Shown here: positions 34,925 to 42,368 of the stretch, in pieces | Layout of the letters: each line of letters begins with the position of its first letter | Position numbering within the stretch: position 1 is the stretch's first letter | Sequence record: OR352948.1 | Reading direction: 5' to 3' (one strand) | Source: Escherichia phage AV118 | DNA length: 64,000 bases | Notes under the pieces: generated by a model | Databases searched by the model: none | What the model saw: the letters and a program-made list of their open reading frames with translations, nothing else | Told to the model about the DNA's origin: nothing | Made by a program: the position numbers and the translations under genes

Positions 34925-35506
34925 TTATAACAACCCTGTCAAATCGTTCCAATGCTTCCGGCATAATGACACATATCTATCGGTATCACCAATTTCAATT
35001 TGACTGCCATCTGTAATTGGAAGTCCGTCTTCCGTGACTCTAGCTACCATTGTGGCCTTTTTACCACAATGACAAACACCTTTAAGTTCAACAAGTTTAT
35101 CGGCAATAGCCATTAATGCTTGAGAACCTTCAAATAGATTACCTTTAAAATCTGTTCGTAGTCCATATGCCATTACCGGCACATTGTACACGTCAACAAT
35201 ACGACTAAGTTGATACACCTTTTCAGTAGTTAAGAACTGAGCTTCGTCAACAAATACACAATGAATATCCTTTTGTGCTGCAGCCCATTTATAAAATTCA
35301 AAGATATCCATGTCTTTTGTAATTATATTGGCATCCTGACGAATACCAATACGAGAGACTATTTCACCTTTTGAATCACGAGTATCAATAGCCGGTTTAA
35401 GAACTAATACACCCATGCCACGTTCTTTATAGTTATGTGCGGCAGTAAGTAATGAAGCAGACTTACCAGCGTTCATAGCGGCATAGGTAAAAATTAAACT
35501 AGCCAT
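34925..35506 (-). CDS. tk: thymidine kinase
   Basis: 193 aa; P-loop NAGKSASL, Zn-binding CHCGKKA...C motifs. Confidence 0.95.
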   Translation of the reverse strand: MASLIFTYAAMNAGKSASLLTAAHNYKERGMGVLVLKPAIDTRDSKGEIVSRIGIRQDANIITKDMDIFEFYKWAAAQKDIHCVFVDEAQFLTTEKVYQLSRIVDVYNVPVMAYGLRTDFKGNLFEGSQALMAIADKLVELKGVCHCGKKATMVARVTEDGLPITDGSQIEIGDTDRYVSLCRKHWNDLTGLL

Positions 35507-35515
35507 AAGAGTCCC

Positions 35516-35698
35516 TTATAGTGAATTCACGTAGTCAATGAGTTCTTGTTCTTTCCTGTCAAATGATTCCAACAATGCTTGATATTCTTCGTCCGTCAAA
35601 GGAGCATATTCATCATACGCATTGGTGGCTGCTTGCTCATCCAATAGGTCATGGATAAGTTCAAACAGTTTAGTTTTCTCTTCTTTAGTCAATTTCAT
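35516..35698 (-). CDS. hypothetical acidic protein
   Basis: 60-aa ORF. Confidence 0.45.
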   Translation of the reverse strand: MKLTKEEKTKLFELIHDLLDEQAATNAYDEYAPLTDEEYQALLESFDRKEQELIDYVNSL

Positions 35699-35922
35699 TT
35701 AGGTTCACCTTCTTTAACGAAATCTGGGTAAGGGTAAAATCCTGAGTAAAACCCTTCACCTTTATGATTGCTACAACCTTTGTTCGAACAGTAACACCAA
35801 TAATCAAAATCACAAGCCATTTCGTCATTGCATAAAGCAAAAACTACAGGCCATTCGCATTTTTCGCATTTAGCACCTGTAAGAATTTTTGTTTGACTCA
35901 TAGCCATGTCACCTTTAAGCAA
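35695..35922 (-). CDS. Cys-rich small protein (putative Zn-binding)
   Basis: 75 aa with about 10 Cys (CEKCEW, CYCSNKGC). Confidence 0.5.
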   Translation of the reverse strand: MLKGDMAMSQTKILTGAKCEKCEWPVVFALCNDEMACDFDYWCYCSNKGCSNHKGEGFYSGFYPYPDFVKEGEPK

Positions 35923-36125
35923 TATTCTTCTACATGTTGTTTACGGCCTTTCTTATCAATAAAGGTATATTCAACGAATGTTCCGATGTAGTCTTTATCT
36001 ACATCATGTGGACTATTAATTGGACATTTAGTACGACAAATGCGTTCCCATTGACGAATAATTACTGCCTTATTCTTTGGATCATATGGATGTGGATAAT
36101 GTATATTCATAATAACGGTTCCCAA
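35898..36125 (-). CDS. hypothetical protein
   Basis: 75-aa ORF. Confidence 0.45.
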   Translation of the reverse strand: MGTVIMNIHYPHPYDPKNKAVIIRQWERICRTKCPINSPHDVDKDYIGTFVEYTFIDKKGRKQHVEEYCLKVTWL

Positions 36126-36604
36126 TCAACAATCACAATTTCTAGTTTAGTGGAATACGTATCTAAAATCTCTTCGATGACATCCCAGTTTCCACCACCA
36201 ATACCTGCACCAATTCTTGGCATATAAATTACAGGCTTTGTTATCTTATTCTTTCCGAATTCATTTAATTCTATTATACAATTCATTAAAGCAGAGTACT
36301 CAAAATTAGGTCCCGGCTCAAACTGTGTATAAAGATTAAAGCAATAAGCTTTATGGGTCTTAAAATATTTTTCATAAACCGAATAAGTCCCGAGTTTAGA
36401 CTTGTCTCCGAATTCGGTTTGAAGTTTATCGGCTTCTAAAATTTTTGGATAAGCCTTTGCTAATTGGCCTGCTACACCGGCGCCCATTGTATGAAAACAA
36501 TTACACCCATGAGCAATATTATTACCTTTAGAAAACAGGGCGACAATATCGCCCTTGATATAGTTTTTAATCACTTGCTGCAAGTCCTCTATTATAAGAG
36601 TCAA
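36107..36604 (-). CDS. macro-domain protein (ADP-ribose binding/processing)
   Basis: 165 aa; GDIVAL...HGCNCFHTMGAGVAGQLA and YMPRIGAGIGGG motifs typical of macro domains. Confidence 0.6.
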   Translation of the reverse strand: MTLIIEDLQQVIKNYIKGDIVALFSKGNNIAHGCNCFHTMGAGVAGQLAKAYPKILEADKLQTEFGDKSKLGTYSVYEKYFKTHKAYCFNLYTQFEPGPNFEYSALMNCIIELNEFGKNKITKPVIYMPRIGAGIGGGNWDVIEEILDTYSTKLEIVIVDWEPLL

Positions 36605-36914
36605 CTAGACGGTCCACCATAGAATTGCATGCTGCCTTATCTTTAGGTTCCGCCACCGAGCATTCTAATATTTGCCATTTTTTATAGTATCTTTTAATTA
36701 AGGTAGACGCCTTGAACCTACTAGACGCCCCATCTTTTTCTCCGTCTTTATACGCGTATAACAATTTTTGTGAAAAATCTACTTTACACTCTTGACTTTT
36801 ACCACAATAATCAGACGCCGTTCTGTTTGTATACTCCGTTACATCAGTATATGTAGTATTAGCAAGAGCGTTAAATGAAACCAAGCTAACTATTAAAGCC
36901 AACATTTTGGTCAT
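36567..36914 (-). CDS. secreted/periplasmic protein with signal peptide
   Basis: 115 aa; N-terminal MTKMLALIVSLVSFNALA signal-like segment, 4 Cys. Confidence 0.5.
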   Translation of the reverse strand: MTKMLALIVSLVSFNALANTTYTDVTEYTNRTASDYCGKSQECKVDFSQKLLYAYKDGEKDGASSRFKASTLIKRYYKKWQILECSVAEPKDKAACNSMVDRLVDSYNRGLAASD

Positions 36915-37453
36915 TCTTTTATTTCCAGTAGTTTATTTGATTTAAGGTAATTAGCCTTTTCTAGGACTTCAGAAGCATATTTACTTCCAGCACTTGTCTT
37001 CCATCCTGCATTATATGAGGATATAGCTTTTCTTATATCCCCATTATGTATATTTAACCAATAAGAAAATTCGATATAAGCCCATCTGGCTGAATTAGAC
37101 CGCTTAGATAGCATTTTCTTAATTTGGGCATCAGACATATTATAACCAAGCTGGTTAATTCTTGCCCTCATTGTTGGTAGATAATTTTGGAACATTCCAT
37201 ACGCATGGTGACCTTTCTTATCTTTAAGATTAATACCGGCAGATGATTCCTGCCATAGTATTGCGGCCATTATGTATCCAAGTCCTTTCTTATGCATATT
37301 TTCATGCGTTTTAAATTTTCCGTCCTTAGAAAACTGTTCCCCAAACTGATAAGCATAATTCAAGTTATCGAGTTGGACATTACTAAAAGTATGCTCGGAG
37401 CTATGTGCTGATAACGAAAGAGCAAATAGACCAGCGAGTAGTGCTTTTCTCAT
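36911..37453 (-). CDS. secreted lytic transglycosylase (SLT domain)
   Basis: 180 aa; signal peptide MRKALLAGLFALSLSAHS; catalytic-region motif AAILWQESSAG...YGMFQ. Confidence 0.7.
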   Translation of the reverse strand: MRKALLAGLFALSLSAHSSEHTFSNVQLDNLNYAYQFGEQFSKDGKFKTHENMHKKGLGYIMAAILWQESSAGINLKDKKGHHAYGMFQNYLPTMRARINQLGYNMSDAQIKKMLSKRSNSARWAYIEFSYWLNIHNGDIRKAISSYNAGWKTSAGSKYASEVLEKANYLKSNKLLEIKE

Positions 37454-37461
37454 GTTTACCT

Positions 37462-37920
37462 CTAGATTTTAATCACTGCTTTAGAAGCTTTTCCTGGTAG
37501 TCGTTTACTGTTAATAATAGCCATTCTACATTGAAGAGTCTTCATTTTGAATGCCGGATTTTCGCGACAAACTGTAAGTCCTAACCAAAGATTTCCGTCA
37601 GTTATTTCTAAACGGCCTGGGCGATATTCGACACCTTCGACAAAATCTTCATCAACATCCGGACGTGCCGGCATTGATAAAAATTCTGCAACTTCTTTAA
37701 CGTGATTTTTTACTTTATGAAATAATTCAAAAACGTAATTCTCATCTATTTCTCTCTGGATGGCACGATCTAAGAGATGTTGAGAATACTTGATATGAAA
37801 GCCTGGTAGTCCAAGAGACTTTGCAGCATCTTTTATACCGGCATTTATTTTGCGGAACTCCGTTTCAAAGATTCGACGGAGTTTATTACGGCGGATAAAA
37901 ACATCCGAATTGATAGTCAT
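37462..37920 (-). CDS. regB: endoribonuclease RegB
   Basis: 152 aa; sequence/size as T4 RegB, position relative to tk and e. Confidence 0.75.
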   Translation of the reverse strand: MTINSDVFIRRNKLRRIFETEFRKINAGIKDAAKSLGLPGFHIKYSQHLLDRAIQREIDENYVFELFHKVKNHVKEVAEFLSMPARPDVDEDFVEGVEYRPGRLEITDGNLWLGLTVCRENPAFKMKTLQCRMAIINSKRLPGKASKAVIKI

Positions 37921-41909: not shown

Positions 41910-42368
41910 TTATAGGAGGGTAGTGAGCACCTTATATAATGATTTGCCCATTACATATTCCCATTGAGAAGGTTTAATTAAAGCGAATGCATCAAATTCA
42001 GGAATCTGACGTCCGTCTGGGAATGTATGATAGGAATTACAAACACTGTTTCTGAATTGCTCGTGCTCTACAGGGATGGTATATAGGAACAGATGAATAT
42101 TCTTATTATCTGAGTAATGATGTTCACCTAGGTCTTTCAGGAAGGCAGGGTCATATTGTGTAAACCCAGTTTCTTCTTCGCATTCACGAATAGCGGCTTC
42201 AATAGGAGATTCGCCAGGTTCGACATGGCCTTTAGGAATATCCCACCGATGAGCTAAAGAACCTTTAGGACGAGAACCAGTTACACGCCCCATGAATAAT
42301 TCTTTATCTTCGGTAAGGAAAATAATACCGGCTGATAGTTCTTTCACTTTATTTTTCTTACTCATCAT
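41910..42368 (-). CDS. nudE: Nudix hydrolase
   Basis: 152 aa; Nudix box GHVEPGESPIEAAIRECEEETG. Confidence 0.9.
   Translation of the reverse strand: MMSKKNKVKELSAGIIFLTEDKELFMGRVTGSRPKGSLAHRWDIPKGHVEPGESPIEAAIRECEEETGFTQYDPAFLKDLGEHHYSDNKNIHLFLYTIPVEHEQFRNSVCNSYHTFPDGRQIPEFDAFALIKPSQWEYVMGKSLYKVLTTLL

Follow-up and report, generated by a model that had tools for sequence, protein, structure and literature searches.

DarTG systems halt phages through ADP-ribosylation of the phage DNA, and phage-encoded erasers, AdfN and AdfM among them, account for how T-even phages withstand this attack. T4 without adfA and adfN remains DarTG2-resistant (PMC11825919), which predicts a further anti-DarTG2 factor, and tk.4 fills this gap. 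With the HIDEN-SEQ approach, T4 tk.4 was the only significant match of a saturated transposon library on DarTG2-expressing E. coli; a clean T4 tk.4 knockout was DarTG2-sensitive, and the gene was named adfM, for anti-DarT factor, macrodomain (bioRxiv 10.1101/2025.11.20.689424). The authors of that study write that the removal of ADP-ribose from DNA by the enzyme “seems likely.” The same name and proposed role belong to gp104 of PhiKZ, the AdfM of the chimalliviruses, which like Tk.4 stands alone and counters DarTG2. This protein removes DarT2-made ADP-ribose from DNA in vitro, less so when it carries the N23A substitution, and it is imported into the phage nucleus (Cell Reports 2026, PMC13309987). 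The role of gp104 is backed by biochemistry, whereas that of Tk.4 is backed by T4 genetics and sequence.

Two catalytic types have been described among the related macrodomains. The K80A form of DarG is inactive (PMC5179494), and TARG1 has a Lys84/Asp125 dyad (PMC9411070). SCO6735, without the catalytic lysine, rapidly cleaves DarT-made dT-ADPr; Q85A and Q85E abolish this activity and N27S nearly does so, and the study proposes that water initiates the reaction, with the glutamine positioning the distal ribose (PMC9411070). The long mobile loop of SCO6735 has been tied to DNA handling (PMC9411070).

The window that we analyzed, a stretch of 64,000 nucleotides from Escherichia phage AV118 (OR352948.1), comes from a T4-like Mosigvirus, whereas T4 itself is a Tequatrovirus. 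The 2.2 kb tested around the gene (35400..37600) match Escherichia phage AV115 at 100% identity and Mosigvirus phages, NBG1 and JK36 among them, at 99% or more. An earlier note, made from the sequence alone, had described an ORF at 36107..36604 on the minus strand as a macro-domain protein in the tk-regB interval. This ORF is present in the window, its translation reads KGDIV, HGCNCFHTMGAGVAG and YMPRIGAGIGGGNW as quoted in that note, and tk and regB indeed lie on either side of it:

34925..35506: tk (Pfam TK, 7e-57)
35898..36125: counterpart of tk.3, immediate downstream neighbor of tk.4 (70 aa, Pfam DUF7202)
36107..36574, minus strand: tk.4/adfM coding sequence, a stand-alone macro domain of 155 aa with a GTG start
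36567..36914: vs, immediate upstream neighbor of tk.4
36911..37453: counterpart of vs.1
37462..37920: regB (Pfam REGB_T4, 6e-69)

The protein is 83-84% identical to T4 Tk.4 over its full length (coverage 94-100%), and the gene order, from vs through tk.4 and tk.3 on to tk, matches that of T4. By sequence and gene order, then, the window gene and T4 tk.4 (adfM) are syntenic orthologs. Many GenBank records already label the gene “macro domain protein,” “phosphatase” or “Poa1p-like macro domain.” The macro-domain finding is correct; it is also already described, since public records annotate the macro domain and the T4 ortholog has an assigned function.

The neighbors of tk.4 are vs and the DUF7202 gene, with no ART nearby and no adjoining darT gene. 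Public labels in the neighborhood look unreliable (records MN850622 and MK962754). The 70-aa tk.3 counterpart carries the label “putative ABC transporter ATP-binding protein,” and the vs.1 counterpart, for which no Pfam match was found at E <= 1e-3, is called “endoribonuclease RegB” or “SLT transglycosylase,” depending on the record. A promoter scan of the tk.4 neighborhood returned 13 sites against 13.6 expected from shuffled sequence, that is, no excess. About 5.3 kb from tk.4, adjoining the lysozyme gene, there is a NUDIX hydrolase gene (41910..42368, minus strand; Pfam 8.5e-17), which we presume to be the counterpart of T4 e.1/NudE. It is a further possible NAD/ADP-ribose-metabolizing enzyme of the same early region.

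The real start of tk.4 is most likely the GTG at 36574..36572, giving 155 aa, rather than the TTG at 36604 of the listed ORF. This assignment follows from three points: the T4 ATG has an in-frame stop directly upstream; the tblastn alignments to T4 and to orthologs of 60% identity or less begin at residue 11; and the CDS annotated in two related records, mobillu and JK36, has 468 nt. The 165-aa ORF with the TTG start was set aside, as its extra 10 residues are unconserved and overlap vs. Three short elements lie at this junction:

36575..36604, minus strand: TTG extension of the listed ORF, 30 nt, overlapping the 3' end of vs
36586..36589, minus strand: Shine-Dalgarno-like GAGG, 11 nt 5' of the GTG start, read from the sequence
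36567..36574, minus strand: vs/tk.4 overlap, 8 nt, GTGATTAA, with the vs stop TAA at 36569..36567

The extension, which is absent or blocked in T4 and falls outside the homolog alignments, is probably not translated as part of the tk.4 protein. Judged by its Shine-Dalgarno-like sequence, the GAGG may act as the ribosome-binding signal of tk.4; the T4 gene has a GAGG 12 nt 5' of its ATG, compared with 11 nt 5' of the GTG here. The 8-nt overlap arises because the GTG start overlaps the vs stop codon. T4 has the same start-stop arrangement with an overlap of 4 nt (ATGA, ATG start), whereas it is 8 nt with GTG here. The overlap suggests that translation of tk.4 may be coupled to that of vs. The vs gene is the most strongly depleted T4 gene in M9 glucose, which is also the medium of the DarTG2 assay (bioRxiv 10.1101/2025.11.20.689424).

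Just past the vs stop, codons 7-13 of tk.4 contain a terminator-like structure:

36537..36555, minus strand: 8-bp GC-rich hairpin followed by GUUUUCU

The hairpin reads AGGGCGAT-ATT-GTCGCCCT, with a dG of about -13 kcal/mol. It is kept in T4, JS98 and ECD7, the ECD7 version having another loop, a closing pair T:A for T:G and altered amino acids, whereas Karamvirus RZH and Jiaodavirus Metamorpho have lost it. The hairpin could terminate vs transcripts, or it could arise incidentally from the conserved sequence that codes for KGDIVALF. In record MH243438, a “terminator” is annotated at this hairpin and tk.4 is truncated. For phage T2, Hfq RIL-seq captured chimeras of the tk.4 transcript and the host sRNA ArcZ, and proteomics of infected cells detected the Tk.4 protein (bioRxiv 10.64898/2026.06.19.733364); that preprint mislabels tk.4 as “putative thymidine kinase.” A link between the T2 ArcZ chimeras and the hairpin with its U-tract is possible.

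The macro domain is upheld by the sequence profile, the predicted fold and the conserved ADP-ribose-binding loops. The match to Pfam Macro (PF01661) spans profile positions 2-117 of 118 and scores 28.2 bits, above the gathering cut-off of 22, and PHROG 335 is matched at 1e-66; the macro-domain match is far beyond chance. In phmmer searches against PDB sequences, Bt_1257 (1.8e-10), yeast Poa1p (1.4e-8) and SCO6735 (6.8e-5) were followed by TARG1/OARD1 (about 1e-3) and the DarG macrodomains (1e-3 to 7e-3). A predicted structure unlike a macro domain had been named beforehand as an outcome that would speak against the reading; run through AlphaFold2 and Foldseek, the protein came out with a macro fold. 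The AlphaFold2 model, built with 76 homologs as input (mean pLDDT 95.7, pTM 0.91; six strands and six helices), predicts an alpha/beta/alpha sandwich with a six-stranded mixed sheet, and its best Foldseek matches in the PDB are TARG1, Poa1p, DarG and Bt_1257. The nearest structural neighbors of this model belong to the ALC1-like class, set apart from other macrodomain classes. From the Pfam, phmmer, AlphaFold2 and Foldseek results, the protein is in the ALC1-like macrodomain class, together with TARG1, DarG and SCO6735.

The predicted active site is made up of three elements:

36476..36511, minus strand: loop 1 of the ADP-ribose pocket, H22-G-C-N25-C-F-H-T-M-G-A-G33
36323..36337, minus strand: motif N80-L-Y-T-Q84 at the end of a beta-strand (from the translation, hhalign and MAFFT)
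36185..36220, minus strand: loop 2, diphosphate-binding, P119-R-I-G-A-G-I-G-G-G-N-W130

Within the family, G23, N25, C26 and G33 of loop 1 are invariant and H22 is nearly so, and P119, I121, G122 and G124 of loop 2 are invariant. The putative ADP-ribose loops thus comprise N25, G31-A-G33 and P119-x-I-G-x-G-x-G-G, all invariant or nearly so. Residue invariance was checked in 120 listed homologs and 141 further 50%-cluster representatives (261), throughout which Q84, N25, C26, D49, Y82, G122 and G124 do not vary. When the Tk.4 family was aligned with a DarG-like set by hhalign (probability 98.7%), NLYTQ fell on N-F-P-T-K, with Q84 on the catalytic lysine; against SCO6735 and Bt_1257 (probability 99.0%, E 4.8e-18), H22, N25 and Q84 fell on H24, N27 and Q85. 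A joint MAFFT alignment agrees with the hhalign placement of Q84, and N25 pairs with DarG N22 and PhiKZ AdfM N23. The catalytic lysine (DarG K80, TARG1 K84) is not present in the window protein, which has Gln84 there. An ungapped phmmer pairing after strand 5 had set Q84 opposite an Asp of Bt_1257; we regard this as a register error, because the gapped hhalign alignment, MAFFT and the predicted strand boundaries disagree with it. The Tk.4 ortholog of Krischvirus ECD7 (L007:401-856) reads NLYTK, with a lysine at the DarG/TARG1 position where the 261 others have glutamine, and it gives independent support for the alignment of Q84 with the lysine. This ortholog suggests that glutamine and lysine solutions at position 84 may interchange. 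Because of the invariant glutamine at the lysine position and the His/Asn/Gln site of SCO6735, the protein is not just a copy of DarG. We infer a chemistry like that of SCO6735, in which Gln84 would be positioned by Asn25 and the reaction initiated by water, rather than the lysine-dependent DarG/TARG1 type.

SCO6735 (PDB 5E3B) and Bt_1257 (PDB 2FG1/2AFC) are, like Tk.4, stand-alone proteins of about 150 aa, with an identity of about 24-29% to the window protein. The catalytic type is shared, with glutamine at the lysine position and a positioning His and Asn, and their loop PRIGCGLAGGxW matches loop 2 of Tk.4 (PRIGxGxxGGxW). In contrast, of the two DNA-contacting lysines of SCO6735, K34 is replaced by Ala32 in the window protein and the K89 position is without a lysine, the mobile loop is 6 residues shorter, and the Tk.4 family invariants G23, C26, D49, K60 and Y82 are not in SCO6735. 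T4 Tk.4 has the same conserved pocket residues as the window protein; near the pocket it differs in having S where the window protein has A32 and K where it has G127.

DarG was the sole match in both PADLOC and NCBIfam, the latter through NF048014 (DarG2) with 31.3 bits against a cut-off of 250, over profile positions 4-146 of 338. The DarG2 macrodomain (PDB 5M31/5M3E/5M3I) has Lys80 where the window protein has Gln84, and DarG2 has a C-terminal DarT-binding domain, whereas the window protein has neither such a domain nor an adjoining darT. Membership of the DarG family was ruled out because of the low NCBIfam score, the missing C-terminal domain, the lack of a darT neighbor and the glutamine in place of lysine. 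The same architecture bears on whether the protein neutralizes DarT2 chiefly by binding the toxin, as a stoichiometric inhibitor and not as a catalyst. Full-length DarG inhibits DarT by binding, but its macrodomain alone, as K80A, does not (PMC5179494), and the C-terminal DarT-binding domain of DarG is what the window protein lacks; dead SCO6735 Q85A does inhibit DarT in vitro, more than dead DarG or TARG1 (PMC9411070). N25, Q84 and G122/G124 are strictly invariant in hundreds of diverged homologs; this is enzyme-like, and it favors an enzyme, since more variation would be expected of an inhibitor that follows a single toxin surface. We therefore hold inhibition by binding to be very improbable as the main mode of action.

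With PhiKZ gp104, Tk.4 shares the conserved Asn and the G-A-G loop. Unlike Tk.4, gp104 is truly DarG-like: it matches the Mtb DarG macrodomain at 9e-25, and it has an FPTK motif whose lysine corresponds to DarG K80. Its BLASTP match to the window protein covers 23 residues, and we rejected sequence equivalence of the two.

Yeast Poa1p (PDB 6LFQ-6LFU) and human TARG1/OARD1 (PDB 4J5Q-S) are of the same macro class, with comparable fold scores. The lysine-aspartate dyad of TARG1 is absent from the window protein. Poa1p was deposited as an ADP-ribose-1''-phosphate phosphatase, with H23, S30 and F152 as the residues probed in its structures; it shares the H-x-C-N-C motif with Tk.4 and has Ser in the region equivalent to Q84. 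This shared motif, the label “phosphatase” of PHROG 335, the fusion of one family member to NUDIX and a general comparative-genomics argument could all point to small ADP-ribose derivatives as substrates, through a Poa1p-like phosphatase activity, deacetylation of O-acetyl-ADPr, or destruction of ADPR-derived immune signals, with the gcADPR of Thoeris as one example. Yet “phosphatase” and “O-acetyl-ADP-ribose deacetylase” are transferred names and not tests, the sole known phenotype of the T4 ortholog concerns DarTG2, a DNA-modifying system, and the papers cited here describe neither a Thoeris phenotype nor a small-molecule assay. A small-molecule role thus seems unlikely to us. The earlier note's suggestion that the protein might degrade ADPR-derived immune signals found neither support nor contradiction; the word Thoeris is absent from the main text of the T4 AdfM study (10.1101/2025.11.20.689424).

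We propose that the protein probably hydrolyzes ADP-ribose from DarT2-modified thymidines of phage single-stranded DNA and would thereby neutralize DarTG2. In this scheme, a host carrying DarTG2 would sense the infection, and DarT2 would put ADP-ribose on thymidines of single-stranded phage DNA, so that replication would be blocked. The phage macrodomain would then use its two glycine-rich loops to bind the ADP-ribose and would cut the ribose-thymine bond, leaving normal DNA on which replication could go on. The macro fold, the conserved pocket, and the orthology and synteny with T4 tk.4 are direct observations; the enzymatic step of Tk.4 is presumed by analogy with DarG, TARG1, SCO6735 and PhiKZ gp104, the proteins for which it has been shown. 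A reversal of host ADP-ribosylation, as the earlier note had put it, fits the T4 genetics, in which tk.4/adfM is needed against DarTG2, and the infection of defended hosts with a deletion mutant that it envisaged matches the published T4 tk.4 knockout on a DarTG2 host. As a refinement, the relevant host mark would be ADP-ribose on phage DNA (thymidine) and not on protein.

Several points count against reading the protein as a DNA eraser. The T4 support is genetic and comes from a preprint, and the identity with T4 Tk.4, at 84%, falls short of 100%. The window protein has no DarG/TARG1 catalytic lysine, and none of K34, K89 and the long mobile loop of SCO6735. Its BLASTP similarity to PhiKZ AdfM, a local match, is negligible, and it is about equally close to Poa1p and DarG. 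The macro fold alone is blind to substrate, and ADP-ribosylated proteins or RNA, with marks made by phage Alt/ModA/ModB or by host ARTs, might instead be the main substrates. SCO6735 and TARG1, the nearest characterized relatives, also strip mono-ADPr from protein (PMC9411070), and T-even phages have ADP-ribosyltransferases, of which Alt and ModA are named in the T4 study. We give this little credence, as tk.4 is non-essential on plain K-12 and is depleted specifically with DarTG2 (10.1101/2025.11.20.689424), no protein or RNA target has been reported, and such an activity could exist beside the removal of ADP-ribose from DNA and not instead of it. All three alternatives, namely small-molecule substrates, protein or RNA substrates and inhibition by binding, are compatible with the proposed hydrolysis of DNA-linked ADP-ribose.

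The family to which Tk.4 belongs is large. Database searches gave 382 homologs at E <= 1e-5, homologs were found in 2,800 phage records, and a full search of the profile against 1.84 billion cluster representatives returned 18,172 at E <= 1e-3, with 1,208 of them at E <= 1e-30. Among the representatives from this search (P0246, P0202 and P0250), Tk.4-type macrodomains are fused to other domains: Macro + NADAR + DUF4326 (472 aa), DUF4326 + Macro (302 aa) and Macro + NUDIX (247 aa). Such fusions point to ADP-ribose processing as a likely function, and the NADAR fusion in particular to the reversal of DNA ADP-ribosylation. NADAR is the eraser domain of the AdfN/DarG1 type for ADP-ribose on DNA. 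A Macro-NADAR fusion would join the two domain types of AdfM and AdfN.

It is conceivable, albeit at well under even chances, that the T4-type AdfM is not a captured DarG but part of a large subfamily, chiefly of short stand-alone proteins and many of them from T4-like phages, which would be lysine-independent and would possibly act on broader or different substrates. The subfamily would comprise at least 1,208 clusters at 50% identity (E <= 1e-30), and we propose H-G-C-N-C ... D49 ... N-x-Y-T-Q as its signature. Its members would work without the lysine, in the manner of SCO6735, but with invariants of their own (D49, C26 and Y82) and without the DNA-clamping loop of SCO6735. If this is true, other nucleic-acid, protein or small-molecule conjugates of ADP-ribose may be substrates, and resistance to DarTG2 would be no more than one phenotype that happens to be visible.

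The window gene is one more ortholog of an already named factor. The new element is modest: by sequence, T4 Tk.4 and PhiKZ gp104, both called AdfM, belong to different branches of one macrodomain class, with glutamine and lysine active sites, respectively, and we did not find the substitution of glutamine for lysine in the Tk.4 family in the T4 or PhiKZ AdfM papers. The difference between glutamine and lysine at this key position predicts different chemistry for the two AdfM types. The existence of two AdfM lineages suggests that phages recruited ADP-ribose erasers independently.
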